From: an uncultured delta proteobacterium
Lineage (GTDB): Bacteria > Myxococcota_A > Polyangia > Haliangiales > Haliangiaceae
Reading direction: 5' to 3'
Length of the DNA: 64,000 nt
Assembly: GCA_963772655.1 (NCBI GenBank)
Contig: CAVYYE010000003.1
Span: forward strand, 2,673,341-2,737,340
Shown here: positions 21,343-53,948 of the stretch, piece after piece
Numbering within the stretch: the stretch's first letter is position 1
Layout: each line of letters starts with the position of its first letter
Made by a program: the position numbers and the translations under genes
The notes under the pieces: model-generated
What the model was told of the DNA's origin: nothing
The model's database searches: none
Seen by the model: only the letters and a program-made list of their open reading frames with translations

Positions 21343-21675
21343 CTACTTGAAGAACGGGTAGTAGACGCCGTCGATCGTGTAGCCGGAGTAACCGCCGATC
21401 GTGTTGGGGGCGTACGCGGGCGCGGGCGCGGGCGCGCTACCGCCGCCACCTCCACCCATCATCATCATGAACATCATCATGGTCGTCGGGTCCATGCCCT
21501 GCTGGCGGTTGGTCTGCAGGCTCTGGAGCGAGTCGATCACGCCGCTCAGCGCCTGCGTGATCTCGGCGTTGGAGCCGCTCGACGACACGCCACCGCTGAC
21601 CTGAGAGAGGTCGGTCGGGTCGATGGTCTGGAGGGTTTCGGGCCGGGCGGGTTGGGTGGGCTTGGCTTTGGGCAT
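21343..21675 (-). CDS. small secreted peptide precursor 1: double-glycine-type leader (…TLQTIDPTDLSQVSGG) + Met/Gly-rich core (MMMFMMMMGGGGGG)
   Basis: The ATG at 21675 has an AAGGA RBS 8 nt upstream. The protein is 110 aa. The leader is conserved with three other ORFs in the window. The gene lies immediately downstream of the VIT1-like transporter gene on the same strand. Confidence 0.6.
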   Translation of the reverse strand: MPKAKPTQPARPETLQTIDPTDLSQVSGGVSSSGSNAEITQALSGVIDSLQSLQTNRQQGMDPTTMMMFMMMMGGGGGGSAPAPAPAYAPNTIGGYSGYTIDGVYYPFFK

Positions 21676-21822
21676 GGCCGGTGTCCTTCGGTGGTGACAC
21701 CCCTGTCTCCAGCAGTCGACGTGCCACCGTTCGAAGGTCGCGATCTCGCGAACATCGACGACCATCGAGGGACGGGCCCCGGCGAGCGAAGCGCCGGTCC
21801 GTATACCGCCGGACTCGATCGA

Positions 21823-22942
21823 TCAGCCCAGCGCCACCCCGAGGAGACGCCCCACCCCGAACGTCAGACCCGCGGCACCGAGCCCGAGAACGAGCTGTCG
21901 CCCGCCCGACCACACCGCCGACCTCCCGGTGAATAGCGTGATGCCGGCACCGACCGCGAACAGCGCGAGCCCCGAAAGCCCGATGCTCGCGATCATCGCG
22001 ACCGTGCCGCTCGCGAACACGAACGGCACGACCGGGAACACCGCACCGAGCGTGAACAGCAAGAACGAGGTCAGGGCCGCGGTCCACGCCGATCCGCCGA
22101 GATCATCGGGATCGAGTCCGAGCTCCTCGCGCGCGAGGACGTCGAGTGCGGTCTCGCGATTCGCGAGCAGGTTGGTCGCGAGCTGCTTGGCTTCCTCCTT
22201 GGGGATGCCCTTGGCCTCGTCAGATCAGCTGTAGCTCCTCGCGCTCTTCCTCGGGCGCCGCCGCCAGTTCCTCCGCCTCGACGCGCAACTCGCGCTGCGC
22301 GAGCTCGCGCGAGCTGGTCACGCTGATCCATTCGCCGAGCGCCATCGACGACGCGCCGGCGAGCAACCCGGCGAGACCGGCGATCAGGATCGCCTGGCTC
22401 GACGCTTCGGCTCCCGCCACACCCATCACGAGCGCGAGGTTCGAGCACAGACCATCGTTGGCGCCGAGTACCGCCGCGCGGAGAGCATTGCCTCCGACGT
22501 TGCGATGGCGACCCTCGACGCGTGCCAGCGTGCTTCCCGTCGCGCCCTGCGCGCGCTGCATCATCACGCCGAGCACGCGCGCGTGCGATCGCTCCTGCGC
22601 CGCCATCCGCGTGTGCGCCGACTCGGCCTGCGTGGCGTAGTCGTCGCGCCCCGCCGACTCGCGCGCTGCCACCGTCGGCAAGATCGCGCGCGCACCGAAC
22701 CGTACCGCGAACCAACGCAGCACCCGCGCCCGCCAGCTCGGGCGCCGAGGCCCCGGATCGACACCCTTGGCGCGAAGCTGGTCTTCCCAGAACGTCGCGT
22801 GCTTCTCCTCGACCGCCGCGAGCTCTCGATAGATGTTGGCGATGCTCTCGTCGGACTCGACGTCGGCCATCGCGTGGTACTGCGCCGCGCTATCGATCTC
22901 GTCCTGCCGGTTGAGCCGAAACCGCCGGATGTCGTCCGTCAT
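21823..22942 (-). pseudogene. VIT1/CCC1-family Fe/Mn transporter with N-terminal ferritin-like (rubrerythrin-type) domain; interrupted by a 1-nt insertion creating TGA + frameshift at ~22221
   Basis: The N-terminal frame carries the ferritin-like E-x-x-H motifs plus TM1-2 and ends ...EEEREELQLI*. The next frame continues with (Y)EAKGIPKEEAKQLATNLLANRETALDVLAREELGIDPDDLGGSAWTAALTSF plus TM3-5, which is a perfect VIT-family loop consensus (ELxxIYxxKG). Removing the single base at ~22221 restores ELQLIYEAKG. Confidence 0.7.
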
Positions 22943-22946
22943 GGGA

Positions 22947-23609
22947 TCACGGGAGATCCAGAAGCTCGGTCTTGTTCGCGTAGTTGATCGCCTGCTTCAC
23001 GCGCTGGAGGAACTCCTGGATCCGATCGATCTCGTTCCACACCTCGCGTGACGGCAAGCCGTAGTCCATGACCTCGGTGACGTCGTAGCCGAGTAGCTCC
23101 ATCTCCTCCGCCTTGAGTCCTTTGTCCGAGAACGTCTCCTTCTTGCGCTCGACCTTGTGAACGTTGCGGTAGCGGACGTGGTCGTCCCCGGTCTCGATCA
23201 CGTTCACGCCGTCGGCGCGCAGCGGGATCGCGCGTGCGGCTTCTTCCATCTTGGGGATGATGCTGTCCTTGAGCACGAGCAACTCGGGGATCGAGTAGCT
23301 GCGTGCGTTGCCCTCGAGGTCGGATACCTCGGCCTTGGCCGCCTGGTTGGTGATCGAGATCCGGAGTGCGAGCTGGCGATCCTCCGCGATGATCTCGCGG
23401 ATCTTCGCGCGGCACTCGTCGACCGTGTAGTGCCGCGACGTCGTCTTCTCCGATCCGGGCTCCGGAGCGAAGGCCTGGGCGCCCTCGATCGCGTGAGACC
23501 GATAGGTCCGCTTGGTGTGTCCCGACGCCTTGAGTCGGTTGGTCCACGACGTCAGATCGGCGGAGAGCTTCTTGCGGCGGTTGAACGCATCGCCCAGGGT
23601 CATGCGCAT
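22947..23609 (-). CDS. conserved hypothetical protein (Lys/Glu-rich, 220 aa)
   Basis: The composition is non-biased and clearly coding. It ends 5 bp upstream of the VIT1-like gene on the same strand, so it is probably co-transcribed. I recognise no domain. Confidence 0.6.
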   Translation of the reverse strand: MRMTLGDAFNRRKKLSADLTSWTNRLKASGHTKRTYRSHAIEGAQAFAPEPGSEKTTSRHYTVDECRAKIREIIAEDRQLALRISITNQAAKAEVSDLEGNARSYSIPELLVLKDSIIPKMEEAARAIPLRADGVNVIETGDDHVRYRNVHKVERKKETFSDKGLKAEEMELLGYDVTEVMDYGLPSREVWNEIDRIQEFLQRVKQAINYANKTELLDLP

Positions 23610-23706
23610 GGGCGAAGGTTATCCGAGGTAACCACCCAAAACCACGAGACTACTGATCTTTACATCGTCTGTACGAACCGAGGAATCTGCGCAGAAACGC
23701 TACACT

Positions 23707-26592
23707 GTGGTTCGTTCGGCAATGGCGAGCTTCTTCTTCGGTCGAGTCGACGAGCTGCGCCGGCTTCGAGCTCTGGCCGAAGAACCGGTCGCACTGATCT
23801 ATGGGTTGCCCGGGATCGGCAAGAGCGAGCTCGCCTACCACGCGGCTGCCGAGCTGCGTTCGGCACCGCCGTGGCAGGACATCCCGATCGTGCGCGTGAC
23901 GATCGAGCCGCACAACGCCCGCGTGTTCCACAGCTTCTTGCACGCACGGATCACCGGTCGCGGTTGTCAGGGTCTCTCCGATCTCGTCGCCCTGCTCGCG
24001 AAGACACCCCACGTGGTGGTCCTCGACAATGCCCACCACGCGCCGAACGAGATCGCCGCCCTGGTCGACGAGCTGGTTCGCGAGGTCGAGCCGGCGAGTC
24101 GGTTGATCGTCACCTCGCGCACGGCGCTTCCCGTGGTGACCACGCCGATCGTGATCCGCCTCGGGCCGCTCGCGAAACCGGAAGCGCGATCGCTCGCCGA
24201 GCACTTCGCGACGCGCCTCGGCATGCCCACCGACGGGCTCGACCCACTCGTCGAGCACAGCGGTGGCAGCCCGTTCCTGTTGCGGCATCTGGTGGCCGGA
24301 AGCCGGCGCGGCTCCAGCAGCGGTGATCCGCTCGAGGAGACCATCAACATCCTGGACTCGGACGCACGCCAGGCGCTGATCCGGTTGGCCGCGGTCGCCG
24401 ACTGTTCGCGCTCGCGGCTCGCCGCAGCTCGGCTGGTGCCCGACGACCGCGTGTTCAACACGCTGGCGGAGCAGTTCCTCGTCGATTCTCGCCCCGAGGA
24501 GCTGGTGATCCACGAGCTCGTTCGCGAGGTCGTGATGAGCGGCGCCGATCGCGACACCATCGCGTCGAGCCGCAGGACCGCGGCCCAGGTGTTGTGGGAG
24601 GACTTCGAGCGCCACAGCTTGCCGCTGGTCGCGGTCGAGTCGATCTGCCTGTCGGTGTCGGCGGGCGATATCGAGCAGGCGTTCGCGAGCCTGCGCGCCG
24701 CGATCCAGACGATCAGCGGTGCCGGACTCGATCACCTGCTGGTGCCGACGCTCGAACGACTGTCGCGCGACGGTCGACCCGAAGCCACGCTCGCGCTCGC
24801 GCGGATCTACCTGCGGATGGCGCGGATCGACGACGCGGCCCAGGCGATCGAGGCCTTGCCACCGGAGCGAGACCACGACCTGTCGGCACTGATGACACGC
24901 GCGACGATCGCCGAGCGGCGCTGCCGGGTGCTCGAAGCACGCTCGCATCTGGCGGCGGCGCTCGAGGTCGCTCGCGATCCGCGGATGCGTGCACTGGTTT
25001 CGATGCGACTCGCGATCATCGAGACGCTGTCCGGTGAACCGAGCGGCAGGAAGCGGATCGTGGAGCTCGAGCACGATCCCGCGATCACCCGCGAGGTCGA
25101 TCGCGTGCGTTTGTGCTGGGCCCGCGGTGTCGTGCACGCCCTTCACCTCGAGTGGATCGAGTGTCTGTCGGCAGTGTCCGAGGGTCGGCGGATCGCGCAG
25201 GCAGCGGCGATCGTCGACCTCGACTTCCTGTTGATGCTCCTCGAGCTGCTGGCCGCGAGCGAGCTCGGCGACGTGACACGCGCGGAGGAGCTCGGTCGCG
25301 ATACGCGCCTCGTCGAGACCAGCGCACACCTGCGCGGCCGGATGTCCGAGCTCTACGTCGGCGTATCTCAGGTCGTGTGCGGGCGGCTCGACGAGGCCGT
25401 GGTCACGCTCGAGCACGCGTACGTCGAGCACGAGCGCCAGCACGACGAGCTACTCGCCTGCCTCGCCGGCCACTTCCTCGGTCGTGCACTCGCGCTGCAC
25501 GGTGAGGCAGCGAGGTCGGTCGAGGTGCTCACCGACGTCAGCCAGCGCGCCACCGCGGCGAAGCTCGTTCCGTTGATCAGTCCGGGCAGAGCGCATCTCG
25601 GTCGCGCGCTGCTGACCGTCGGCCGCGTCTCAGATGCGGAGCACATCGCGCGCGACCTTCGCGATCACCCGTTGCCCGCGATGGCCGCGGAGTCCGCGGC
25701 GCTCCAGGCGTACGTCCACGTGTTCCGCGGAGACATCGAGCTCGCGCGAACCGAGATCGCACGCGCGCTCGAGATCGCCGGCGACCGCGAACCGCTCAGG
25801 ACCGACTACGCCCTCGACCAGGCTTACATCGAGCTGTTCGGTGGCGATCCCGAACGCGCGCGGGCGACAGCCGTGGCGGTGATCGAGGACGAATCGCGCC
25901 GCCGGCGCCCGTATTCGCTGGGACGCGCGTTGCTCGTCACCGCGATCGCCGACGTCGCCGCGGGGATCTACGACACCGCGTTGGCCTCGCTCGCGCGCAT
26001 CGACGAGCTCGCGAAACGCCACGGCCTGCACTTCCTGCACGCACGTGCCGCGCTGTTGCGCAGCGCGACCTCGCACGGCGGCACGTCGATCCTCGAGCGC
26101 GTCCCTGCCGAGCAACAGCAAGGCTACGTCGGACTCCTGCGCGTCCTCGGACTCCGTCCCGAGACGGTGATCGTGTCGTCCCGGCATGGTCGGCTCCATA
26201 CCGAACACGCCTTGCTGCGCGAGGTGGCGCGCGAGCACGATCTGCTGATCGATCTATCCACCGGATCGATCATCGAGAAGTCCGGGCGAGCGATCGAGGG
26301 ACGCGGCGTCGCCTCCGCGATCCTGGTGGCGCTCGCCGAGAGTCCCGATCCCGTGAACCCGGAGCGGCTCTACCAGATCGTGTGGGGCGGTACCGACTAC
26401 CACCCGCTTCGCCATCGCAACACGCTCTACATCGCGCTCAACCGCACGCGGAAGCTTCTGGACGAGCTGGTCGGTGACCGCGAGATCATCATCCGCCGCG
26501 ATCCGACCGGATGGGCGATCGCGCCGGATGTCGACATCGCCGTCGCGCGTCGCGACCCGCGGGTGTCGACGGTCACCGGCGCGCGAACCTGA
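23707..26592 (+). CDS. STAND-class NTPase (NB-ARC/AAA-like P-loop) + TPR-like helical region + C-terminal OmpR/PhoB-type winged-helix DNA-binding domain; putative transcriptional regulator
   Basis: The Walker A motif is LIYGLPGIGKSELAYHAA. Walker B is hhhhDN (VVVLDNAHH). The middle region is long and helical. The C-terminus reads LYQIVWGGTDYHPLRHRNTLYIALNRTRKLL (trans_reg_C). An alternative start lies at 23722 (MASFFFGRVDEL). Confidence 0.8.
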   Translation: MVRSAMASFFFGRVDELRRLRALAEEPVALIYGLPGIGKSELAYHAAAELRSAPPWQDIPIVRVTIEPHNARVFHSFLHARITGRGCQGLSDLVALLAKTPHVVVLDNAHHAPNEIAALVDELVREVEPASRLIVTSRTALPVVTTPIVIRLGPLAKPEARSLAEHFATRLGMPTDGLDPLVEHSGGSPFLLRHLVAGSRRGSSSGDPLEETINILDSDARQALIRLAAVADCSRSRLAAARLVPDDRVFNTLAEQFLVDSRPEELVIHELVREVVMSGADRDTIASSRRTAAQVLWEDFERHSLPLVAVESICLSVSAGDIEQAFASLRAAIQTISGAGLDHLLVPTLERLSRDGRPEATLALARIYLRMARIDDAAQAIEALPPERDHDLSALMTRATIAERRCRVLEARSHLAAALEVARDPRMRALVSMRLAIIETLSGEPSGRKRIVELEHDPAITREVDRVRLCWARGVVHALHLEWIECLSAVSEGRRIAQAAAIVDLDFLLMLLELLAASELGDVTRAEELGRDTRLVETSAHLRGRMSELYVGVSQVVCGRLDEAVVTLEHAYVEHERQHDELLACLAGHFLGRALALHGEAARSVEVLTDVSQRATAAKLVPLISPGRAHLGRALLTVGRVSDAEHIARDLRDHPLPAMAAESAALQAYVHVFRGDIELARTEIARALEIAGDREPLRTDYALDQAYIELFGGDPERARATAVAVIEDESRRRRPYSLGRALLVTAIADVAAGIYDTALASLARIDELAKRHGLHFLHARAALLRSATSHGGTSILERVPAEQQQGYVGLLRVLGLRPETVIVSSRHGRLHTEHALLREVAREHDLLIDLSTGSIIEKSGRAIEGRGVASAILVALAESPDPVNPERLYQIVWGGTDYHPLRHRNTLYIALNRTRKLLDELVGDREIIIRRDPTGWAIAPDVDIAVARRDPRVSTVTGART

Positions 26593-26678
26593 GAGAATCA
26601 CTGGCACGTAAAGACGAAGTACAGGTCGCGACATGACCGGGAGCGCCCGGGTTCCGGCAACGTAACGCTCGGGGTTTC

Positions 26679-28313
<1,635 letters not shown>

Positions 28314-28412
28314 CGCACCGAAGCACTCGTGTTGCCCGCTGTACAGATGAAGTAAAGCCCCGGTGAAGACGGACACCGAGGCGAATTCGGCAAAGTGAAT
28401 CCCGGGAGGATC

Positions 28413-30815: not shown

Positions 30816-30842
30816 TCCGCATCGCGGATCGACAAGGACAAC

Positions 30843-32546: not shown

Positions 32547-32653
32547 GCGGGCTCGCCGCCCCGCGTTCGTGATCGCGCTTCGACGGTCGATCGACTGCAG
32601 GGCTTGCGCCGACTACGCAACCGCCCGGTAGTCTGGCAGCATCGTACCCGCTG

Positions 32654-36076: not shown

Positions 36077-36197
36077 CGATCAGCGCGGTGCGTCGATCTC
36101 TGATCCACCGAACCCGTTGTGATTCGTGGTCACAGGTCCGTTCACGATCGGGAGACCGGCTCCAACGATCCCGCGAATCTAGGCACTGGCACGAAGG

Positions 36198-36878
36198 ATG
36201 CTGCATAGTAAATACATGCGAAACCTGCTCGTCCTGATGGTGCTCTCCATCGCCGCTGGCGGTTGTTACGCCACCACGACCACCGGCTACACCCCCGCCT
36301 ACGTCGGCCCGGCGGTGTCCGTCTCCGCCACGACCGTCGCCCCCGATCTCGTCTACGTCAGCCCTGGCGTTCAGGTGATCGCGGACTACGACGAACCGAT
36401 CTTCTACTCCGACGGCTTCTACTGGAGGGAGTACGGCGGCACCTGGTACCACTCGCGTTACTACGATCGCGGTTGGGCCTACGCCGCGCCGCCGCGTGCG
36501 ATCGTCTCGATCGGCAACCGGCGCTCGTACGTGCACTACCGCCCGCGCGGGTACACGCCCCGCGGCAGCTACGTGCGCGACCACCGCGGATACAACCGGT
36601 CGCGTCCGATCGTTCGCGACAACCGCGGCTACAACCGGTCGCGTCCGATCGTTCGCGACAATCGCGGCTACAACCGGTCGCGTCCGATCGTTCGCGACAA
36701 CCGCAACTACAACCGGTCGCGTCCCGTGGTTCGCGACAACCGTGGCTACAACCGATCGCGCCCGGTCGTTCGCGACAACCGCTCGACCCGGTCGCGTCCC
36801 GTGGTTCGCGACAACCGCAGCAACCGGTCGCGTCCCGTGCGCGACAACCGTAGCAACCGTCGCGATCATCGACGCTAG
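36198..36878 (+). CDS. lipoprotein with C-terminal tandem 13-aa repeats (RSRPIVRDNRGYN x ~7)
   Basis: The lipobox is MRNLLVLMVLSIAAGGC. The N-domain is Tyr/Trp-rich (YWREYGGTWYHSRYYDRGWAY). An alternative start lies at 36216. Confidence 0.6.
   Translation: MLHSKYMRNLLVLMVLSIAAGGCYATTTTGYTPAYVGPAVSVSATTVAPDLVYVSPGVQVIADYDEPIFYSDGFYWREYGGTWYHSRYYDRGWAYAAPPRAIVSIGNRRSYVHYRPRGYTPRGSYVRDHRGYNRSRPIVRDNRGYNRSRPIVRDNRGYNRSRPIVRDNRNYNRSRPVVRDNRGYNRSRPVVRDNRSTRSRPVVRDNRSNRSRPVRDNRSNRRDHRR
36575..36860 (+). repeat. 39-nt in-frame tandem repeat x ~7 (ggctacaaccggtcgcgtccgatcgttcgcgacaaccgc and variants)
   Basis: The repeat is seen directly. Confidence 0.85.
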
Positions 36879-39785: not shown

Positions 39786-40028
39786 CTACCACCAGCGACC
39801 GCGACGGCCGCTGACGTAGACGACGTTCGCCGCCTGGCTACGCTGGAGCGCGATGCCCATGAGAAGGATCATCTGCGTGCTCGAGAACCCCTTGGTCTGA
39901 GCCGAGATGTCCTTGATCGACGACGCCAGCTTGCTGATGTCGTCGAGGAACGGGTCACCTGCGTGCTTGGTTCCGCCGGTGACGGTCGAAAGAACGGTGG
40001 GATCGATGGACAGGATCTTGTTCGACAT
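39786..40028 (-). CDS. small secreted peptide precursor 2: double-glycine-type leader (MSNKILSIDPTVLSTVTGG) + amphipathic/hydrophobic cationic core ending RRGRWW (class II bacteriocin-like)
   Basis: The ATG has an AGGAAG RBS. The composition is Lys/Ile/Ser-rich and atypical for non-coding high-GC frames. The leader is conserved with ORFs at 21343, 42535 and 53721. Confidence 0.6.
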   Translation of the reverse strand: MSNKILSIDPTVLSTVTGGTKHAGDPFLDDISKLASSIKDISAQTKGFSSTQMILLMGIALQRSQAANVVYVSGRRGRWW

Positions 40029-40137
40029 GGGCTGGGCTTCCTGGTGATGGCAGGTGGTGCCGATCGTTCGAGCAGCCCGCGTGCCATCGCTAAGTCGTTG
40101 ATCCCAGTCGCGCGATCCAACCGAACGAATTCATTCG

Positions 40138-40176
40138 AGGTGACACCTCGCCAACCGAGGGTGACACCCGGGGGGC
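40138..40176. promoter_or_regulatory. two small palindromes GAGGTGaCACCTC and GGGTGaCACCC ~110-135 nt upstream of peptide ORF 2; same GGTGnCACC core occurs 15 nt upstream of peptide ORF 1 (21690-21698)
   Basis: The palindromes are seen directly. They may be an operator for a dimeric regulator. Confidence 0.3.
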
Positions 40177-41074: not shown

Positions 41075-41159
41075 CCGACGATCATGCGCGAAACCCGGTG
41101 CCGTGCGGGATCACACGCGATCACCGGCGCGAGCTGCAGGTCTCTCGCGGTGTCGCGGT

Positions 41160-42403: not shown

Positions 42404-42525
42404 GCGATCGTCGCTCGTCGATCGTCGCTCGTCGCTCGTCGCTCGTCGCTCGTTGATCGTCGCTCGTCGCTCGTTGATCGTCGATCGTCGATCGTCGCTC
42501 GTCGCTCGTCGCCGATGGTCGCGTT
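42404..42525. repeat. intergenic heptanucleotide microsatellite (CGTCGCT / CGTTGAT / CGTCGAT) ~16 copies
   Basis: The repeat is seen directly. It lies immediately 3' of the peptide ORF 3 stop on the minus strand. Confidence 0.85.
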
Positions 42526-42534
42526 GACAGTCGT

Positions 42535-42729
42535 CTACTGGCCGTAGCCGGTCGTGCTGCCGTAGCCGGAGATCTGGACGTTGGTCGTGATCTCCGGACC
42601 GGCCGACGGCGGCGGAGCCGGCGGGGCCGCCGGCGGCGGGCAGCTCTTCTTCTTGTGACAACCGCCGGAGACGCCGGCGAGGTCGGAGAGATCGATCGAC
42701 TCGAGGAGGGGCTGGGTGGTGGTGGACAT
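42535..42729 (-). CDS. small secreted peptide precursor 3: double-glycine-type leader (MSTTTQPLLESIDLSDLAGVSGG) + Cys/Lys/Pro-rich core (CHKKKSCPPPAAPPAPPPSAG…GYGSTTGYGQ)
   Basis: The ATG at 42729 has a GAGAGG RBS. The protein is 64 aa. The leader is conserved with the other three peptide ORFs. Confidence 0.55.
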   Translation of the reverse strand: MSTTTQPLLESIDLSDLAGVSGGCHKKKSCPPPAAPPAPPPSAGPEITTNVQISGYGSTTGYGQ

Positions 42730-42885
42730 GTCGCCTCTCGGTGCAGCGCATATGCCACGGGTTCCCGCCGAAACTCCGCGCAGTTGGCCAGACGGCATCG
42801 TCTCCCGTGGGATGCAATCGATGATCGCGCGACGCAGGCCAACGCTGGTCGAGCGTGGGACAATCACCCGGTGATCGCGCCGAAC

Positions 42886-43113
42886 ATGTCATCGCGCGGC
42901 AAGCAGCTCGCAGCGCTGTTCGCCCTGGTGATCATCTTCGCGCTCCCCAAGCAGGTCGAGTGCGGGTATCCCGGCGGGACCTGCGAGCATCCGGCCTCGT
43001 TCCATCGCACGTGCAAGAGCTACGAGGTCGAGCCGTTCGGGTTCTACCTGATCGAGAAGCTGGTCGGAGACGACGTCGGGTTCGCGTACTCGTCGGGCGA
43101 GAACTGCCGCTAG
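42886..43113 (+). CDS. small secreted/membrane-anchored Cys-containing protein (75 aa, 4 Cys), divergent from peptide ORF 3
   Basis: The protein is MSSRGKQLAALFALVIIFALPKQVECGYPGGTCEHPASFHRTCKSY..., with a hydrophobic N-terminus and protein-like composition. Confidence 0.4.
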   Translation: MSSRGKQLAALFALVIIFALPKQVECGYPGGTCEHPASFHRTCKSYEVEPFGFYLIEKLVGDDVGFAYSSGENCR

Positions 43114-43541: not shown

Positions 43542-43563
43542 GACCCCGTGTTATCACGCTCCG

Positions 43564-45276: not shown

Positions 45277-45403
45277 TCGATCCTCGTGGTCGTGATCGTT
45301 GTCTCCGACGTGGACGTCGACGTAGGGAACAGGACACGAGGACGCCGAGATCGTTTCCCGCGAGTGCCGACCGTGGCTACGGCGCGTGCCCGATGGACAG
45401 TCG

Positions 45404-46435: not shown

Positions 46436-46483
46436 GGTGTCTGACCCGGACGACAAAATACGTCGTCCCGGCGAGACCGCAAG

Positions 46484-47008
46484 CTAGCCGATCCGCCGAT
46501 CTCGGAGTGCGCGACTGCGCGTGGTGCATCGCTCGCTGACGATCGCGATCACGCGATGCGTCCCCTCGATCAGCTGGACCTTGCCGAGATCGCCGCGCCG
46601 TCCGACCAGTCGGCCGCGCGAGCCGGCGGCGATGAACCGCCAGGTCTTGTGGCCGCGCTTGCTGCCCTGGATCTCGGCGAGCACGTCGCGGACGATCATC
46701 ACCAGGTCGCCGATCTCGGCGGAGAACAACAGCGGCACGCCTCCGTTCGAGATGGTCTCGACGAACGACGCGATCTCGTCGGCCAGCGGCGCGGTGACCT
46801 CGAGGCGGAGGTTGTCGAGGTCGACCCGCTGGGTCTTCGTGACGTGGTCGACCATCGCAGCCAGCGCCGGCGGCATCGCCAGGGCCTGGGTCTGGCCCTG
46901 CGTCTGGGGATGCGCCTGGCCTTCGAGAGGAGGAGGCAGCGGGCGACTCGCGAGCCCGGTGAGGAACCGCAAGCCTTCGGTACCGTTGACCGTGATCGTC
47001 GTCAGCAT
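46484..47008 (-). CDS. hypothetical protein
   Basis: The C-terminal roughly 170 aa of the ORF have non-biased composition. The N-terminal extension is probably not coding. I recognise no domain. Confidence 0.35.
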   Translation of the reverse strand: MLTTITVNGTEGLRFLTGLASRPLPPPLEGQAHPQTQGQTQALAMPPALAAMVDHVTKTQRVDLDNLRLEVTAPLADEIASFVETISNGGVPLLFSAEIGDLVMIVRDVLAEIQGSKRGHKTWRFIAAGSRGRLVGRRGDLGKVQLIEGTHRVIAIVSERCTTRSRALRDRRIG

Positions 47009-47048
47009 CGGTATCGCGACGTTACTCGGGGGGACTGACACGCTCGTG

Positions 47049-47642
47049 TCAGGGCTGCGCGCCGCTGCCCGCAGCACCCGTTGGGGCACCACCCCGACCG
47101 AACCTCCGGCCGAACCGTCCGAACCGACCACCGCCCCACATCCGCGAACGCTGCTCGAGCGCGGCGTCGAGCTCGTCGACACTGATCGTGCCGTCCTTGT
47201 TGGTATCGAGCTCCTCCGGCTTCATGCGGCGGAACCGGCCCTGCGCGAGCTCGTCGGGCGTGACCTTGCCGTCACCGTTGACGTCGGATCGAGACAGCAG
47301 ATCCTCGGCGCGCTTGTGGCGTGCGGCCGCGCGCTCCTCGTCGCTGATCTTGCCGTCACCGTCGGTGTCGAGCTGCTCCATGCGGTGGCGGCGCCGCGAC
47401 TGGAAGTCTTCCAGCGACGGACGCTCGCGCGTCGTATCCGCGCTGTCGCTCTCGTTGCTCGGCAAGCTCGGATGCCGGGGCGTCTGGAGCTCGATCTTCC
47501 CCGACCGACCCTTTCCGAGGTTGTTCGGCGCCGTGTCGGACTGATCGTTCGACGACGTGGCCTGGGTTTTCGACGAAGACGAATCCTTGCAGCCGCTGGC
47601 GGCGAGGACTCCGACGAGGGCGATTCCGAGTAGCTTCCGCAT
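47049..47642 (-). CDS. EF-hand calcium-binding lipoprotein (three EF loops)
   Basis: The lipobox is MRKLLGIALVGVLAASGC. The EF loops are DTDGDGKISDEE, DVNGDGKVTPDE and DTNKDGTISVDE. Confidence 0.8.
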   Translation of the reverse strand: MRKLLGIALVGVLAASGCKDSSSSKTQATSSNDQSDTAPNNLGKGRSGKIELQTPRHPSLPSNESDSADTTRERPSLEDFQSRRRHRMEQLDTDGDGKISDEERAAARHKRAEDLLSRSDVNGDGKVTPDELAQGRFRRMKPEELDTNKDGTISVDELDAALEQRSRMWGGGRFGRFGRRFGRGGAPTGAAGSGAQP

Positions 47643-47771
47643 GTCGCGAGGACGTTAGAGCAAGCCCTGAGCCAGCACGCAAGTGCCTTCGATTGCCGGG
47701 GTGCGAACCCGCACGATCCGCCGCGTTCTGCCGATCACGCAGGGCAGCATGCGGTTTCGGCATGCGAGATC

Positions 47772-48401
47772 CTAGAATCGGCCGCCGATCGTCCCGACCC
47801 CGATCGTCCACTCGATGCGGTGGCGTCGTTCGAGGCGGGCGCTGTCGCGCGGCTGGGTCCACGCGAGCAGCGGCGTGACCGGTATCGCGGTGAGAAACGA
47901 CGTCGCGCCCGTCGTGAAGTCGTGCCGTGCCCACAAGAAGATCGAGCCCGCCAGGTTGACAGCCGTACCACCGATCAACGTCAGCCACACGGATCGCCGT
48001 TCCTTGCGCCCGACGATCTGGATCGCGTGACGAAGCGCGCGCACGTCGTCGCACGGATCGTCGACACGTGGAGGAACCGCGATCCGCAGCGGCAGGACCA
48101 CACGCGACGCCATCCCGAGACTGGACTTGAGCATCCCGACGTACATCGCGTCGCGAAACCGATCGTCGAACGGGCCGAGTGGATTGACCTCGGCCTCGAG
48201 TAACCCGAGCTGTCCGATCGCACTGCCGGCGAAGCCGAGTGCCCACGCCGTGTTCCAGACCTCGGCACGATGTGACTCCGCCTGTAGCTGACGCCGCAGA
48301 TCGGCGGCTTCGCTGCGGCACCGATCGTCGGCGAATGAACGATTCGTGTACACCACGACGATGGTGAGCGTGACGACCGTGACAACGACGCGGCGCACCA
48401 C
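47772..48401 (-). CDS. secreted hypothetical protein
   Basis: The signal peptide is MVRRVVVTVVTLTIVVVY. The composition is protein-like and the protein is 209 aa. Confidence 0.5.
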   Translation of the reverse strand: MVRRVVVTVVTLTIVVVYTNRSFADDRCRSEAADLRRQLQAESHRAEVWNTAWALGFAGSAIGQLGLLEAEVNPLGPFDDRFRDAMYVGMLKSSLGMASRVVLPLRIAVPPRVDDPCDDVRALRHAIQIVGRKERRSVWLTLIGGTAVNLAGSIFLWARHDFTTGATSFLTAIPVTPLLAWTQPRDSARLERRHRIEWTIGVGTIGGRF

Positions 48402-48447
48402 GCGAATCTATGTCATTCGCGCTCCGGCTTGCTGATACCGTTGCTCT

Positions 48448-49176
48448 ATGTCGAACCGGTGGACCGAATTCGTGCTCGTCGCGGCTCTCCTGGGTGCGTG
48501 CGGTGGTGGTGGCGGCAGCAGCGGCGATGACGACGGCGGTCCCGATGCTCCGACGATCCCCGACACCATCATGATCTCGGGGACCGCGGTCACGCAGTCG
48601 ATCCAGGGCAGCAACCCTGCGGTCGGTCTCCAGGTCGAGGCGTACTCGAACGCCGACGAGAACACACCGGTCGCGACCACGACCACCGACATGCAGGGCA
48701 ACTACACGCTGGTCGTGACGACCAACGGCATGGCGCTCGACGGCTACATCAAGGCGACCGGCAACAACCTGGTCGACACCTACCTGTACCCTCCAGCGCC
48801 ACTCGCGGCGGACTTCGACGGTGCGTCGGTCAACATGGTCTCGCCCGGCAACTTCGACATCCTCTCCGGCACGCTGTGCCGTGCGAACCAGGATGCCGCG
48901 AAGGGCACGATCGCGGTGCTCGTCGAGGACGCCAGCGGAACCGCGGTCAGCGGAGCGACGATCGCGAGCGATCCCGCGGCGACCGACACCTGCTACAACG
49001 GGTCGAATGGACTGCCGAGCTCGACCGCGACCGCGACCAGCGACAGCGGCATCGGGTATCTGTTCAACGTCACCGGCAGCGCGACGGTCAGCGCCGACGG
49101 CGCGGGGATGACGTTCCAGTCGCACGGTGTGGTCGCCCGCGCCGGTGCACTGACGACGACGCTCGTCGAGCCGTAG
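48448..49176 (+). CDS. lipoprotein, beta-rich (carboxypeptidase-regulatory-like/Big-like fold suspected)
   Basis: The lipobox is LVAALLGAC with a Gly-rich linker. The body is Thr/Gly/Ala-rich and beta-like. Confidence 0.55.
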   Translation: MSNRWTEFVLVAALLGACGGGGGSSGDDDGGPDAPTIPDTIMISGTAVTQSIQGSNPAVGLQVEAYSNADENTPVATTTTDMQGNYTLVVTTNGMALDGYIKATGNNLVDTYLYPPAPLAADFDGASVNMVSPGNFDILSGTLCRANQDAAKGTIAVLVEDASGTAVSGATIASDPAATDTCYNGSNGLPSSTATATSDSGIGYLFNVTGSATVSADGAGMTFQSHGVVARAGALTTTLVEP

Positions 49177-49186
49177 CGCGAGCCTG

Positions 49187-50209
49187 CTAGCGCGGAGTCG
49201 CGATCAGGGGCCTCACGTTCACCATCGACGGGGGCGTCTTCACGCCGCGCATCAGCGCGTAGCGAAACACCTTCTTGCGATAGCGCAGCGACGCACCGCC
49301 GACCTTGCCCGACTTGGCCATCGCGATGAACGCGAGCTGCGCGTCGGGATCGGACTTGACCTCGGGGTGCTTGGCGACGATGCGCGCCAGGATCTCCTGG
49401 CACGCGCGCTTGGGGTCGAGGCCGGCGCGCATCTGCTCGACGATCGCGAACGAGGCGGCGTGCTTGATCGCGAGCTCGCCGATCCCGGTCGCCGCGGCTC
49501 CGCCGATGTCGTTGTCGACGTAGCACCCGGCGCCGACGATCGGCGAGTCGCCGAGCCGACCGGGCAACTTGTTCGCGAGCCCGCTGGTCGACACCACGGC
49601 CGCGAGGTCGCCCTTGGCGTCGATCCCGATCGCGCACACGGTGTCGTGGTTGTCCTCGTGCCAGAACGAGCGGCGCTTCTTGCGCTCGTGCTGCTCCCAC
49701 TCGCGACGCAGCTTGGCCGTCATCAGATCCTGTTCCTTGAAGCCGAGCTTCTTCGCGAACGCGTTGGCGCCGCGGCCGACGAGCAGGACGTGCTCGGTGC
49801 GCTCCATGACCTTGCGCGCGACCGAGATCGGATTCTTGATGCGCTCGAGCGCGCCGACCGATCCGCAGCGGTGCGTGCGGCCATCCATGATCGTGGCGTC
49901 GAGCTGGACCACGCCGTCGGCATCGGGCCACACGTTGTAGCCGACGGTGTGAACGTCCGGATCGTTCTCCACCACGTGCACGCCTTGCTCGAGCGCATCG
50001 AGCAGATCGCCGCCGCGCGCGAACACGCGCTGCGCCCCCTTGCACAGGTCGAGACCGTAGTCCCAGGTCGCGATCACCGAGGGCATCGTGACCCGCGCAC
50101 GCGGAGCGGGGCGCGGCGGCGTCTTGGTACGAGGCGCACGTGCGCGCGCCGCACGCGGCAGCAGGGCGAGCCCGAGAGCGGCGTCGCGAAGGAGCTCGCG
50201 TCGATTCAT
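49187..50209 (-). CDS. Ntn-hydrolase asparaginase_2 family (isoaspartyl peptidase / glycosylasparaginase-like), Tat signal
   Basis: The twin-arginine signal is MNRRELLRDAALGLALLP. The autoproteolytic/nucleophile region is HDTVCAIGIDAKGDLAAVVSTSGLANKLPGRLGDSPIVGAGCYVD. The start coordinate is approximate to within 1 nt. Confidence 0.8.
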   Translation of the reverse strand: MNRRELLRDAALGLALLPRAARARAPRTKTPPRPAPRARVTMPSVIATWDYGLDLCKGAQRVFARGGDLLDALEQGVHVVENDPDVHTVGYNVWPDADGVVQLDATIMDGRTHRCGSVGALERIKNPISVARKVMERTEHVLLVGRGANAFAKKLGFKEQDLMTAKLRREWEQHERKKRRSFWHEDNHDTVCAIGIDAKGDLAAVVSTSGLANKLPGRLGDSPIVGAGCYVDNDIGGAAATGIGELAIKHAASFAIVEQMRAGLDPKRACQEILARIVAKHPEVKSDPDAQLAFIAMAKSGKVGGASLRYRKKVFRYALMRGVKTPPSMVNVRPLIATPR

Positions 50210-50231
50210 GCCGCGATGATGACCGAAACGG

Positions 50232-51635
50232 TCAGCGGTTGCAGGCTGGAAGCGACTGCGAGCTGCACGTCGGTGGAGCGGTGCCGTCGACCACCGCCTC
50301 GATCCACGCGACCGCGCGCTCGATCTTGCGCTCGAGGACGGTGTCGTGGGTCGCGAGCGCGTCGGCGCAGATCGTCGGGACCACACCCTCCGCACGCAAC
50401 TTCACGACGTCGCAGGCGGCCTCGCCGGCGGCCGGCATCACCTGATCCGCCAGGCCCTGCACGATCAGCACGCGCGCGCCCTGTGGATCCGCGGTCACGA
50501 CGTCGGACAGCATCCAGTCGTGAAACGCCTGGCCGAGACCGGTGCACCCGGCGGTACCGTCGATGCACGCCAGTACCTGCTGCCGGAACTGATCGTCGAC
50601 GAGATCGCCGAGATGCGGCTGCTGCGCGTCGAGCGCACCGCCCAGCGGGATCGTGCACAGCGACTCGATGCTCCCGGTGATCGACGACGCCTCGGTCGCG
50701 GGGAACGACTCCTCTCCGGACAGCCCCATCCGGTTGATCAAGAACCCGTAGTGCCGGAGCACCGTCACCGTCGGAGCCGCGAGCCCGGCGAGCCCCGTGA
50801 TCCGATCCGGGTGGCGCAGCACGTCCTCGTAGCCGAACGATCGCGTCGAGATCGGCCACTCGGGTGCGATCGCGACGACGGCGGACAGGGTGCGCGTTCC
50901 GGTGGTCGCGAATTCGAGCGCCTGCGCCGACAGCACGACGCCGCCGCCCTGGCTGTACCCGGCCGCCGCCACCGGATCGCCGACCAGGCCGTCGGGCTCG
51001 AGCGCCCGCAACGCGATCGCGCCATCTAACAACTGGCCGACCTCGTCGTGGTTGTCGAGATAGCTATGCGTTCCCTCCGTCCCCAGCCCGGCGAAGTCGG
51101 GCGCGATCACCGCGAAGCCTCGCGCCGCGAACGGCAACGCGAGATTCGGCAACGGGTGATCGGCCTTCGAAGGCGCGCAGTCGTCGGCGACGCCCGAGGT
51201 CGAGCGCCCGATCAACACGACCGGTGCCGGCAACGCGCGCGGCACCGCGGGCAGATACACCGTCGCGCTGGTCATCGCCGCGGCACCGTTACTCCGCTGG
51301 GTCCGGTACGCGAGCTTGACCACCCGCACGCCGGTCTGCGCGACGGTATCGCCCGCCCCGCTGGCGTCGAGCGCCGCCTGCACGGCGGCAGCATCGAGCG
51401 CGTCGCCGAGTGCGCAGTGCACGATCGCTCCGCGCGCATCCGGCAGCTGCGTCGGTGACGTGTAGATGTCGCCAGCGGCGTCGCCGCATCCCTCGGGCGT
51501 CGGCAACCACGCCGCGGCCGGCGCGTCGGGCGACACCATTGGCGCATCGGGCGCATCGGGCGCATCGTCGCCGACGGGCGCCATCGTCGATCCACCGCAG
51601 GCAGTCACGCATGCGATCGTCAGCACTCCCCACAT
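50232..51635 (-). CDS. secreted lipase/alpha-beta hydrolase (secretory-lipase LIP-like), lipoprotein
   Basis: The lipobox is MWGVLTIACVTACGG. The nucleophile elbow is GYSQGG. The protein is about 467 aa. Confidence 0.7.
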   Translation of the reverse strand: MWGVLTIACVTACGGSTMAPVGDDAPDAPDAPMVSPDAPAAAWLPTPEGCGDAAGDIYTSPTQLPDARGAIVHCALGDALDAAAVQAALDASGAGDTVAQTGVRVVKLAYRTQRSNGAAAMTSATVYLPAVPRALPAPVVLIGRSTSGVADDCAPSKADHPLPNLALPFAARGFAVIAPDFAGLGTEGTHSYLDNHDEVGQLLDGAIALRALEPDGLVGDPVAAAGYSQGGGVVLSAQALEFATTGTRTLSAVVAIAPEWPISTRSFGYEDVLRHPDRITGLAGLAAPTVTVLRHYGFLINRMGLSGEESFPATEASSITGSIESLCTIPLGGALDAQQPHLGDLVDDQFRQQVLACIDGTAGCTGLGQAFHDWMLSDVVTADPQGARVLIVQGLADQVMPAAGEAACDVVKLRAEGVVPTICADALATHDTVLERKIERAVAWIEAVVDGTAPPTCSSQSLPACNR

Positions 51636-51680
51636 CGCTGTCACGCGCGCACTCTCGCGCACGCCTCTCCGAGTTACGTG

Positions 51681-51702
51681 ATCGAAGTCGTTACACTTCG
51701 AT
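51681..51702. promoter_or_regulatory. 8-bp-stem hairpin atcgaagt-cgttac-acttcgat in the MFS/lipase intergenic region (terminator or operator)
   Basis: The hairpin is seen directly. Confidence 0.3.
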
Positions 51703-51773
51703 TGCGCACACCCGCCGCGTGTTACAGCGCGATGTCGCCGGTCGCGATGGCCACCACTCGAGGGAGCGAGCGA

Positions 51774-53000
51774 TCACGTTCGGTCGGGGCCGACGGCCCG
51801 GAAGCTCCACAGAAACCACGAGATCCCGAAGACGATCGCGACACCCGCCAGCCACCACGTCGAGATCGACTCGTCGTAGACGTCGGCGATCACGCCCGCC
51901 ACGATCGACGAGATTCCGATGCCGAGCGTCGCCAGCCCGTAGTCGAGCGACATCACCCGACCGCGCAGGCGATCCGGCGTCGCGACCTGCAGGCCGTAGG
52001 TCGACACGGCCCACTGCGCGCCACCTCCCATGTGCGCGAGCACCACGAACACGAGCGCGAGCGGAAACCACGTGACGAACGGAAACCCGAGATAGAACAC
52101 GCCGTAGCCCAGCGTCGACAGCGCACACACCGCGACGATCGTGCGCGGCGACGGCGTGGCGCCGGTGACCTTGCGGGCGAACAACGGACCGAGCAAGGCC
52201 CCGAGCCCGCGCGCCGCGAACAGGAGGCCGGTCGGGATCGGCGCGCCGCGGAACCGACCGTGCGCGAATCCCGGCAACAGACCGACGATGCCGTTCGCCC
52301 AGCTCACGCCGGCCTTGGCGAACAGCAGGCGCTTGACGACACGATTGCTTCGCGCGTGGCGGATCACGGCGCGCAACCCGCCGCGATCCTCCTCGGTGGG
52401 TGTCTCGCCTCGCGCCTCTTGCAGCGGCTTTCCGATCCCCGCGACCAGCCATGCCGAGATCACGAACGACGCGGCGTCGATCGAGAACGCCGTGTACGGA
52501 CCGAGCACCGCGGCGACCAGACCGCCGATGCCGGCGCCGAGCAGCAGCATCGATCCCCACACCATGCCCATCAGCGACTGCGCCGAGGCGAGATCCTCCG
52601 CCGGGACCAGGTTGGGCGTCGCCGCCGCGGCGATCGGATCGTAGAAGCTCGCACCGACACCGAGCATCACGATCGCCGCAACCGCCATCGGCAAGCTTCC
52701 CCAGTAGGCGGCGAGGCACAGCGACAGCGCGATCGGAACGCGCCCGAGATCCGCGAGCACCAGGATGCGCCGGCGGTCGAAGCGATCGCCGGCCATCCCG
52801 GCGATCGGCGATGCCAGGAACACGGGCAGCACGGTCGCCGCGTACACGTATGCGGCGGTGCCGGGACGACCGGTGAGATCGGTGACCAGATCGGCGACGG
52901 GAACGAACGAGAACCAGTCGCCGGCGAGCGACACGACGCTCGCGAGGAACAGCCGTCGAAAGTCGGGGTTGCGAGCCAGGAGCTCGCGCGCGGACGACAC
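51774..53000 (-). CDS. MFS transporter (EntS/MFS_3-like efflux)
   Basis: There are 12 TM helices. The MFS motif A-like sequence is GMAGDRFDRRRILV. The protein is 408 aa. Confidence 0.85.
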   Translation of the reverse strand: MSSARELLARNPDFRRLFLASVVSLAGDWFSFVPVADLVTDLTGRPGTAAYVYAATVLPVFLASPIAGMAGDRFDRRRILVLADLGRVPIALSLCLAAYWGSLPMAVAAIVMLGVGASFYDPIAAAATPNLVPAEDLASAQSLMGMVWGSMLLLGAGIGGLVAAVLGPYTAFSIDAASFVISAWLVAGIGKPLQEARGETPTEEDRGGLRAVIRHARSNRVVKRLLFAKAGVSWANGIVGLLPGFAHGRFRGAPIPTGLLFAARGLGALLGPLFARKVTGATPSPRTIVAVCALSTLGYGVFYLGFPFVTWFPLALVFVVLAHMGGGAQWAVSTYGLQVATPDRLRGRVMSLDYGLATLGIGISSIVAGVIADVYDESISTWWLAGVAIVFGISWFLWSFRAVGPDRT

Positions 53001-53009
53001 CCCGTACGA

Positions 53010-53495
53010 CTACTCGTGGATCAACGTCGCGACGCGCTCGCGCAGGTGATCGAGGTTGTCCCTGCCGTCGATCACCCAGTCTTCCATCGAGTAGTAGTTC
53101 TTCACTCCGCGGCTCGCACCGGCGAGCGCCAGGCAGTAGTCCATGCCGCGTTCGTTGCAGCGGGTCGCCTTGGCGGTGATCTTCTCGCGCTCGCCGGTCT
53201 GGCCGTAGACGACGCGAAGCTCGCTGCCGTGGGCCTCGTAGCGGAACATCTCGAACTGGCCTTTCCACTGCGAGGTCGCCTGGAAGATGCCGAACGGCTG
53301 CTCGGTGATCGCGACGAAGATCTGGAACGTGTCGCGATCGTTGCGCGGGATGTGGTCGATCCAGATCCGATCGAGCACGACGTTCTTGGCGAGCGTGTCG
53401 CCATCGCCGCTGTCGTCGTGGGATCCGCTGCGATGCACGGCCACGTACGCCACCACGGCCGCCACGATCATTCCGAGGACGAGCTTGTTCTTCAT
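53010..53495 (-). CDS. membrane-anchored hypothetical protein
   Basis: The N-terminus is MKNKLVLGMIVAAVVAYVAV. The body is of ordinary composition (about 160 aa). Confidence 0.5.
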   Translation of the reverse strand: MKNKLVLGMIVAAVVAYVAVHRSGSHDDSGDGDTLAKNVVLDRIWIDHIPRNDRDTFQIFVAITEQPFGIFQATSQWKGQFEMFRYEAHGSELRVVYGQTGEREKITAKATRCNERGMDYCLALAGASRGVKNYYSMEDWVIDGRDNLDHLRERVATLIHE

Positions 53496-53720
53496 CGGCC
53501 GCACTCTACCCGGACGACGTACGAGCGACCAGGCGATCGCAGGCGATCACGATCGTGGCGCCCGCCGGAGCGCGTGCAGGTTCCCCCAGGGCGCGTTTGT
53601 CTTTCCCCCGACGAACGAACGCGCCTTCGCAGCGATTCCGGCGGGCGATGGCCACCCGCTCCCGCGCGACGATCCTCGTCGATCATCGCGTCGGAGCCGG
53701 TGCCCATCACCGGGCCCCGC

Positions 53721-53948
53721 TCACTTGTTGGCGACCAGCGGCACCAACGGCGATCCCGGGAACGTCGGCAACGGGTTCGGGAACGTCGGCGACGGGTTCG
53801 GGAACGTCGGCGACGGGGTCGGGAACGGGTTGAACGGTCCGGTGCATCCGCCACCGTTCGGCTGCTTCGTCACTCCGCCGGTGACCAGCGAGAGCTCGTC
53901 GAGCTCGACGACGTTATCGGTGGCGGTGACGTTCTCGGTATCGCGCAT
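53721..53948 (-). CDS. small secreted peptide precursor 4: double-glycine-type leader (…NVVELDELSLVTGG) + Pro-rich core with (PTFPNPS)3 repeat
   Basis: The ATG at 53948 has an AGGAGAG RBS 6 nt upstream. The protein is 75 aa. The leader is conserved with the other peptide ORFs. Confidence 0.55.
   Translation of the reverse strand: MRDTENVTATDNVVELDELSLVTGGVTKQPNGGGCTGPFNPFPTPSPTFPNPSPTFPNPLPTFPGSPLVPLVANK
53752..53822 (-). repeat. 21-nt in-frame tandem repeat x3 (gggaacgtcggcgacgggttc) encoding PTFPNP(S/L)
   Basis: The repeat is seen directly. Confidence 0.8.

Follow-up and report, generated by a model that had tools for sequence, protein, structure and literature searches.

Four scattered small genes with double-glycine leaders and sigma-54-type promoters in a Haliangiaceae genome look like one secreted-peptide set

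Can small genes that lie far apart on a myxobacterial chromosome, with no transporter beside them, belong to a single set of secreted peptides? This question is raised by a 64-kb stretch of DNA from an uncultured delta proteobacterium of the family Haliangiaceae (assembly GCA_963772655.1, contig CAVYYE010000003.1, positions 2,673,341 to 2,737,340), referred to below in its entirety as the window. It contains four small open reading frames (ORFs) on the minus strand, named here pep1 to pep4, in which a first-pass annotation had seen a common leader of the double-glycine (GG) type followed by unrelated cores; the coordinates, strand and translations it gave were all exact. The four scattered genes look like one co-regulated secreted-peptide set with its exporter elsewhere, and they look co-regulated because each of them sits behind its own predicted sigma-54 promoter. 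According to this interpretation, to which we assign a probability of roughly 0.6, they are lineage-wide, sigma-54-controlled precursors with GG leaders that would be exported by a distant peptidase-containing ATP-binding cassette transporter (PCAT).

All four ORFs represent real genes. In a genome with a GC content of ~68%, a third-position GC content of 0.91, 0.86, 0.92, and 0.89 for pep1 to pep4, respectively, as compared to 0.47 to 0.62 at positions 1 and 2, is a real-gene signature, and all four ORFs were retained by a simple gene caller based on this parameter. Purine-rich hexamers that resemble ribosome-binding sites (RBSs) were found 6 to 15 nt upstream of each ATG, in accordance with the plausible RBS noted for each ORF in the first-pass annotation. 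Furthermore, genes with products identical to all four peptides have already been called in public assemblies. At E ≤ 10, none of the four peptides matched a Pfam or NCBIfam family.

The predicted sigma-54-type (-24/-12) promoters, which the first-pass annotation had not seen, are present before all four genes and are conserved. The first clue was obtained by reading the DNA upstream of pep2 and pep3, where TGGCAC-N5-CTGC was noticed, and the entire window was then searched. The pattern TGGCAY-N5-YTGCW has four perfect matches in the window as compared to 0.11 expected, all on the minus strand and one upstream of each peptide gene (Table 1); none of 100 dinucleotide shuffles of the window reached four matches. 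The analysis of the 47 loci in which family members were collected (424 kb; see below) revealed that 25 of their 31 perfect sites fall between -60 and +120 nt of a peptide start, a zone that corresponds to 1.35% of the strand space, and that 44 of 63 peptide genes possess a site with at most one mismatch, usually 13 to 50 nt before the ATG. The family sites agree with the published sigma-54 consensus TGGCACG-N4-TTGC[TA] (PMC7910581). Conservation is illustrated by locus L005, a contig of the metagenome-assembled genome (MAG) GCA_034680565.1, in which the orthologs of pep1, pep2, and pep3 all retain the promoter site (TGGCACGTCCACTGCT at 47 nt for pep1 and TGGCATACGCGCTGCA at 16 nt for pep3). 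The pep2 orthologs keep it at 33 to 46 nt, and the pep4 ortholog in L069 has a perfect site at 50 nt. The predicted 5' untranslated regions (UTRs) of pep1, pep2, and pep4 measure 24 to 40 nt and contain the RBS-like hexamers.

Each gene would thus be transcribed from its own promoter, and expression from a promoter of this type would need an enhancer-binding activator, so that one signal probably switches on all genes together. In 22 of 43 promoters, an element of the form [CT]CC-N2-3-GGT-N2-3-CG precedes the -24 box by 50 to 130 nt, with a sharp peak at 71 to 80 nt, as compared to 3.7% expected; this enrichment is optimistic, since the motif was picked by eye, post hoc, on the same data. The shared element may be a candidate activator site. 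In addition, the -24 box of the pep2-type promoters is closely preceded by a palindrome, a further candidate regulator site that differs from the shared element; the same arrangement is found at the pep2 ortholog in L005 (upstream of 9486), where the palindrome is perfect (TTGGATCC..GGATCCAA). Among the window proteins scanned by Pfam there was no Sigma54_activat (enhancer-binding) protein. Scans for sigma-70 promoters and intrinsic terminators around the four genes were uninformative.

We subsequently consider the leader, whose consensus in the family is ...[IL]-D-[PL]-x-x-L-x-x-V-[ST]-G-G. A codon-aware DNA pattern, I-D-[PL]-x-x-L-x-x-V-[ST]-G-G, matched at least 119 loci in GTDB representative genomes. 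Approximately half of the matches listed were ORFs of 50 to 130 amino acids (aa) with the motif 8 to 30 residues from the start codon, and the other matches listed were chance occurrences inside large proteins of other phyla. The small-ORF matches listed came from MAGs labelled Kofleriaceae, Haliangiales, Myxococcales, Myxococcota, Deltaproteobacteria, and unclassified Proteobacteria, with a single betaproteobacterial exception (L105). About 66 distinct small family members were collected in 47 loci, and their motif is always located 15 to 30 residues from the N terminus and ends in GG. The notion of a family, which had depended on the recurrence of the leader in related myxobacterial genomes, is borne out by MAGs of the Kofleriaceae, Haliangiales, and "Myxococcales". 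By this distribution the window belongs to a Kofleriaceae-like myxobacterium, and the myxobacterial source guessed in the first-pass annotation was right. Other queries were less productive. A padded leader alignment used as a protein query, limited by the word index, retrieved only 17 proteins, and the pep1-family alignment retrieved no relative from the genome collection; the patterns used (TIGGYAGYTI and the Met run) were specific to a sub-branch, and relatives with other C termini were recovered later by the leader pattern.

A hidden Markov model (HMM) of the leader, trained on other genomes only and without the window sequences, scored 25.1 bits for pep1, 19.7 bits for pep2, and 18.4 bits for pep3, whereas the best score across 30 reversed or shuffled windows was 8.2 bits. 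The GG-type leader that the first-pass annotation had ascribed to all four peptides is supported for these three by the HMM. We counted pep4 as a family member on the strength of its orthologs, in which the leader is canonical and the Pro-rich core and flanking genes agree with those of pep4. All four leaders end in GG (lengths in Table 1). At positions -4/-7/-12/-15 they have V/L/I/L in pep1 and pep3, V/L/I/I in pep2, and V/L/V with D at -15 in pep4, and an acidic residue occupies position -8 in three of the four (D in pep1 and pep3; pep2 has Val there). By inspection, no Sec-type hydrophobic stretch precedes the GG in the four peptides.

These features place the leader in the double-glycine kind of bacteriocins and microcins, because its length, its GG end, the spacing of its residues, the colicin V score, the L105 peptide, and the relatives that match PF10439 all fit. 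The definition of this class in the microcin literature, namely, a terminal GG, hydrophobic residues at -4/-7/-12/-15, an acidic residue at -8, and no Sec-like segment, fits our leaders of 19 to 29 residues (PMC10233263). The colicin V leader, whose precursor was verified against annotated cvaC on E. coli plasmids, scored 10.2 bits on the family HMM. The leucocin A leader, in what we take to be its sequence, obtained 9.8 bits, and shuffled known leaders had a 99th percentile of 2.0 bits and a maximum of 5.3 bits. In the betaproteobacterial MAG, L105:4288-8000 encodes, in this order, a LuxR-type regulator, a 47-aa GG-leader peptide, an HlyD protein, and a CvaB-like PCAT that is 40% identical to CvaB. 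The peptide (...LPIDPSLLRQVSGG-TDSPKTGW) has a core of 8 residues and a leader that scored 10.3 bits, and the unit resembles an operon for the export of a peptide signal. Gly-rich relatives with the same leader scored 27.8, 26.0, and 22.2 bits against Pfam PF10439 Bacteriocin_IIc (gathering score, 27.1); many of their homologs carry PF10439 in precomputed annotation, and one was named "bacteriocin" by NCBI. These relatives are followed by hydrophobic ORFs of 62 to 69 aa that are immunity-like in look, and they have the appearance of ordinary class II bacteriocins or of microcins that come with immunity genes. Weak ComC Pfam matches were also obtained on the leader of relatives.

According to the proposed mechanism, the products carry their GG leader of 19 to 29 residues and no Sec signal. 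The C39 peptidase domain of a PCAT would bind the leader, and this exporter would cooperate with an HlyD-type adaptor and an outer-membrane factor whose genes lie in other parts of the genome. The leader would be cut after Gly-Gly, and the core would be released outside the cell. The mature cores would act there, with antimicrobials, signals, or surface factors as candidates. Within the order, Haliangium ochraceum is reported to encode a LanT-type transporter, Hoch_5839, with an HlyD neighbour and no LanM (PMC3951391), which by analogy may serve as an order-level precedent for the exporter.

Because positional orthologs recur across genomes, the four genes are old paralogs that each hold a place of their own and have a conserved core. 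This is illustrated by L005, where the orthologs of pep1, pep2, and pep3 occupy the same local neighbourhoods as in the window: pep1 after the VIT1 gene, pep2 adjoining a zinc-type dehydrogenase gene and downstream of an M14 peptidase gene, and pep3 adjoining a small Cys-containing ORF and GreA. The syntenic pep2 ortholog (L005:9235-9486) is accompanied by further ones in L059, L038, and L049, and orthologs of pep3 were found at L005:12212-12397 and as P0034 and P0038. Homologs of pep4 are P0016 and P0018, and its positional orthologs are those in L069 and L084. Clustering of the neighbour genes from the window, L005, and 53 related loci (55 sources in all) brought out a backbone that recurs in many MAGs and consists of VIT1, 3-hydroxyacyl-CoA dehydrogenase, M14 peptidase, ADH_zinc, a TonB_C-like protein, and GreA. 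For pep1 there are ~18 close homologs in metagenomes, with a common leader LQTIDPTALSQVSGG, a run of 7 to 9 Met, and the near-invariant C terminus TIGGYAGYTIDGVYYPF[KR]. An exhaustive profile search with the pep1 type (E ≤ 1e-3) yielded small proteins throughout, which form 379 clusters at 50% identity.

The cores, which comprise 41 to 81 residues in the four window peptides, represent several old, separately conserved types and are not hypervariable. The first-pass annotation had described them as completely different from each other, which proved wrong for pep1 and pep2; both share a layout of a Ser/Gly/Thr linker, an amphipathic helix, G-[MF]-x-x-T, a Met/Leu-rich hydrophobic run, and a basic/aromatic C-terminal strand. 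With these two, pep3 may share perhaps only a C-terminal strand of the I-T-T-N-V-Q-I-x-G-Y type. The core types of the family are the helix with the Met/Leu-rich run (pep1 and pep2), Gly/Ala-rich, Pro-repeat (pep4), and Cys/Lys/Pro-rich (pep3), to which a INMGPPKYSAAWWDF type and a two-Cys YNVEDRRPGAGT type have to be added. In each family, the residues directly after GG are the least conserved part. To speak of a "diversifying" family, as had been done, is misleading, since every paralog has stayed at its position on the chromosome in the different genomes and its core is conserved. An AlphaFold (AF2) model of pep1, derived from the alignment, was of low confidence (predicted local distance difference test score, 58.7); its secondary structure was consistent, with helices at residues 35 to 55 and 63 to 73, the latter corresponding to the Met run, and a C-terminal hairpin at residues 99 to 106. 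A profile search of PDB sequences with the pep1 family gave no match.

Several observations weigh against a co-regulated, exported set. Pfam scans of 40 window proteins, which left out ~15 ORFs under 230 aa, revealed no Peptidase_C39, ABC_tran, HlyD, or OEP domain, and no radical S-adenosylmethionine (SAM), LanM, or YcaO protein either; their content consists of kinases, a TonB-dependent-type barrel, hydrolases, major facilitator superfamily (MFS) transporters, and similar proteins. A tblastn search of the window with CvaB and CvaA, taken from the same record as the colicin V precursor, gave no match, and the statement of the first-pass annotation that the 64 kb contain no C39 transporter, HlyD-like adaptor, or maturase gene was thus upheld. 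The check it had proposed, of whether family members elsewhere lie next to a PCAT or a maturase, came out negative: there was no C39 ABC transporter, HlyD, or maturase within ~60 related loci of 8 to 20 kb each, and the sole PCAT-linked peptide with the motif is the betaproteobacterial one. In accordance, tblastn with CvaB and CvaA against the DNA of the window and the related loci found a PCAT only in the betaproteobacterial locus; a search of 55 related loci for Walker A and LSGGQ motifs returned ordinary ABC ATPases only; and the gene context at nine family places in public records included no C39 or HlyD gene. The relative labelled "bacteriocin" by NCBI sits among heme-biosynthesis genes with no exporter nearby. 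In addition, none of the four window peptides matches a curated GG-leader or bacteriocin model, no immunity-like small hydrophobic ORF of coding character was found in the gaps beside pep1 to pep4, and core-genome, syntenic genes are unusual for bacteriocins. The leader of pep4 itself scored 4.8 to 6.7 bits, which is within the noise, so that for this peptide the assignment stands through its orthologs and not through its own sequence. The promoter spacing of pep3 leaves a 5' UTR of ~2 nt, which is at odds with the proposed use of an RBS; the promoter being 12 nt from the ATG, its mRNA would therefore be near-leaderless, or its start would be handled otherwise. Finally, transcription, cleavage, and secretion are all predicted from sequence.

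What comes closest to a hint of an exporter is the arrangement at two loci. In L033:444-6008 and L098:358-6369, three or four tandem Met-rich GG-leader peptide genes are located downstream of a gene for a TolC-like OEP protein and of two genes for exported proteins without Pfam match. The arrangement is conserved in two Kofleriaceae MAGs, apparently together with the DNA that lies upstream of the OEP gene.

Considering the lack of a nearby exporter, the four products could instead be small proteins that stay in the cytoplasm or the membrane and belong to a stress or developmental regulon under sigma-54, with a motif that serves partner binding or targeting and not export. The genes are indeed core-genome, syntenic genes among housekeeping genes, and the hydrophobic segments of pep1 and pep2 could sit in a membrane. 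We nevertheless judge this explanation unlikely, in view of a motif that is always located 15 to 30 residues from the N terminus and ends in GG, of the poor conservation of the residues just after the GG, and of the occurrence of the same leader both on Bacteriocin_IIc-type peptides with immunity-like partners and on a PCAT-linked peptide in another phylum.

Alternatively, pep1 to pep4 might encode precursors of peptides that are made on the ribosome and modified after translation (RiPPs), where distant modifying enzymes recognise the shared leader and modify the cores before the leader is removed at GG. Dispersed genes with a shared leader and varied cores suit such a system, and a single ProcM serves dispersed prochlorosin genes. 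Conserved Cys pairs in pep3 and several relatives point in the same direction, as does an unannotated 465-aa ORF in L100 that overlaps an MFS_3 gene by 1 nt and lies just upstream of a GG peptide. Set against these points are the lack of a LanM, radical SAM, YcaO, or other maturase in the window and ~60 related loci, the absence of typical modification motifs from the dominant Met-rich type, a leader that is unlike the Nif11 or NHLP leaders and has no NCBIfam match, and the pairing of the H. ochraceum LanT homolog with HlyD and not with LanM; we hence consider modification by distant enzymes a rather improbable account of the four genes. That they are chance frames with a coincidental motif, as might be feared in high-GC genomes where many long spurious ORFs arise, has next to no likelihood, since the coding-type third-position GC content of all four ORFs, the orthologs with conserved cores in several genomes, the HMM scores well above shuffles for three of four peptides, and the conserved promoter before each ORF speak against it, and the conservation data effectively refute it.

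The coordinates of the four genes, their predicted promoters, the candidate upstream elements, and the downstream neighbours of pep4 are given in Table 1.

Table 1. Positions in the window of the four peptide genes and of associated sequence features
Feature	Position	Strand	Description
pep1	21343..21675	-	110-aa precursor; 29-aa GG leader; core with S/G-rich linker, amphipathic helix, Met run MMMFMMMM, Gly/Ala/Pro linker, and conserved C terminus TIGGYSGYTIDGVYYPFFK
Sigma-54-type -24/-12 promoter of pep1 (predicted)	21711..21726	-	TGGCACGTCGACTGCT, 35 nt before ATG
Candidate upstream (enhancer-like) element, pep1	21796..21816	-	GAGTCCGGCGGTATACGGACC, ~75 nt upstream of -24 element
pep2	39786..40028	-	80-aa precursor; 19-aa GG leader; core with amphipathic helix, hydrophobic MILLMGIAL segment, and basic/aromatic C terminus with RRGRWW end
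Sigma-54-type promoter of pep2 (predicted)	40071..40086	-	TGGCACGCGGGCTGCT, 42 nt before ATG
Conserved upstream elements, pep2-type promoter (candidate)	40097..40165	-	Near-palindrome TTGGATC-N10-GATCAAC at 40097-40120; two tandem GTGTCACC... at 40126-40165
pep3	42535..42729	-	64-aa precursor; 23-aa GG leader; core with C-H-K-K-K-S-C, then Pro/Ala-rich spacer, then conserved EITTNVQISGY motif
Sigma-54-type promoter of pep3 (predicted)	42742..42757	-	TGGCATATGCGCTGCA, 12 nt before ATG
Candidate upstream element, pep3	42796..42815	-	GCATCCCACGGGAGACGATG; GGG for GGT, outside the search pattern and not among the 22 of 43
pep4	53721..53948	-	75-aa precursor; 25-aa divergent GG leader VVELDELSLVTGG; core with P-T-F-P-N-P-S-type repeats
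Proximal sigma-54-type promoter of pep4 (predicted)	54000..54015	-	TGGCACGTCGAGTGCT, one mismatch, 51 nt before ATG
Distal perfect sigma-54-type site, pep4	54199..54214	-	TGGCACGCGAGCTGCT, 250 nt before ATG
Downstream neighbours of pep4	51774..53504	-	164-aa membrane-anchored protein (53010-53504) and MFS_3 transporter (51774-53000), 9 nt apart

The surroundings of the four genes offered a number of further observations. The distal site upstream of pep4, after which comes a 48-aa ORF with a weak coding signal (MSIAVSIIKRAAG..., 54037-54183, minus strand), may direct the transcription of a small RNA, of another tiny gene, or of a long 5' UTR. Further sigma-54-like sites with one mismatch are present in the window at 36187-36202 (+), 47659-47674 (-), 56984-56999 (+), and 25919-25934 (+), and three of these four are located just upstream of other genes; their number is close to chance (3.4 expected among nine one-mismatch matches). 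No Rfam family above its gathering score and no tRNA gene was found in window positions 1 to 64000.

The order of pep4, the 164-aa membrane-anchored protein, and the MFS_3 transporter is kept in three genomes (including L069 and L084), and two further contexts (L019/L026/L135 and L100) contain distant MFS_3 paralogs no more than 2 to 3 kb away from unrelated GG-leader peptides. The two proteins could be export partners or immunity partners of the peptides, or their proximity could be a coincidence. Divergently from pep3 and abutting GreA, an ORF at 42871-43113 (+) encodes a signal-anchored protein of 80 aa with four conserved Cys (...VECGYPGGTCEHPASFHRTCKSYEVEPFGFY...), which is conserved in L005 and L054 and has no Pfam match. 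The VIT1 gene upstream of pep1 (21824-22942, minus strand; ferritin-like and VIT family) is frameshifted by a 1-nt gap relative to a Logan contig from the same organism (99.96% identity), where the 372-aa protein is intact; the frameshift is either an assembly error or the mark of a pseudogene. A functional tie between pep1 and the VIT1 transporter, or between Met runs and copper, was considered and kept as speculation, since conserved synteny alone explains the adjacency. In a single case (L029:2084-6859), a 759-aa ORF that has the motif FCNPKCREKF in its N-terminal part, and that might encode a metal-transporting P-type ATPase, lies ~2.3 kb upstream of a Met-rich GG-leader peptide gene, which would be a hint of a metal link for Met runs.

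Curated families and the searchable literature yielded no account of the leader family, its Met-rich, Pro-repeat, and Cys/Lys/Pro cores, its solitary, syntenic distribution in the core genome, or its predicted sigma-54 promoters. GG-leader peptides and their exporters as such are already known, and some relatives have been annotated automatically as bacteriocins. In Gram-negative bacteria, double-glycine peptides are known almost only from enterobacterial microcins encoded in compact clusters (PMC10233263), whereas here a whole bacterial family appears to possess many such genes outside clusters, fixed in the core genome and wired to sigma-54. We tentatively put forward a broader picture, which is conceivable but not the likelier outcome, in which Kofleriaceae-type myxobacteria keep an ancient, dispersed regulon of dozens of GG-leader genes with their own sigma-54 promoters and a shared enhancer-like element, and in which one activator would release a whole cocktail of secreted peptides. 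The Met-rich helical type, whose 379 clusters include a window representative without Pfam, NCBIfam, or PDB match, would then be a class of exported effector or signal that has so far gone unrecognised, with a use in predation, development, or metal handling, and not a classical strain-variable bacteriocin. The locus provides a concrete candidate regulon in an almost uncultured predatory lineage, with promoter, candidate enhancer site, and leader defined at base resolution. Genome mining based on clusters, where peptides are sought beside a PCAT, would overlook almost all such genes. Several unannotated peptide families are exposed, including a Met-run family with hundreds of members, and they are candidates for new antimicrobial or signalling chemistry.

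The class II microcins, with colicin V as an example (CvaC, exported by the CvaB PCAT, the CvaA HlyD-type adaptor, and TolC), resemble the peptides studied here in their Gram-negative host, short GG leader, identical spacing of hydrophobic residues, and lack of a Sec signal. The Gly-rich relatives from this lineage resemble colicin V also in their core and have small hydrophobic immunity-like partners. Microcin genes, however, form compact clusters with the PCAT, adaptor, and immunity genes, usually on plasmids or islands (PMC10233263), whereas the genes described here are solitary, syntenic members of the chromosomal core with predicted sigma-54 promoters and no exporter within reach in loci of 8 to 20 kb, and no microcin has cores like those of pep1 to pep4. 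Signalling peptides of the ComC/BlpC type and the L105 peptide have a GG leader that is cut by a PCAT, possibly a function other than that of a toxin, and regulated expression, as proposed here; their cores are short and their genes lie beside an exporter and a sensor, in contrast to the window peptides with their cores of 41 to 81 residues and no adjacent sensor or exporter. The prochlorosins and the Nif11/NHLP-leader families comprise many scattered precursor genes with a conserved, GG-ended leader, very different cores, and distant processing machinery; their leaders of ~60 to 80 aa are homologous to Nif11 or nitrile hydratase, and their cores are lanthionine modified. The family described here differs in its short, bacteriocin-like leader, the lack of a maturase in the scanned loci, and cores that are individually conserved and not hypervariable. 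With the PF10439 Bacteriocin_IIc family, finally, the window peptides have only the leader in common, which is identical in the relatives that match this family.

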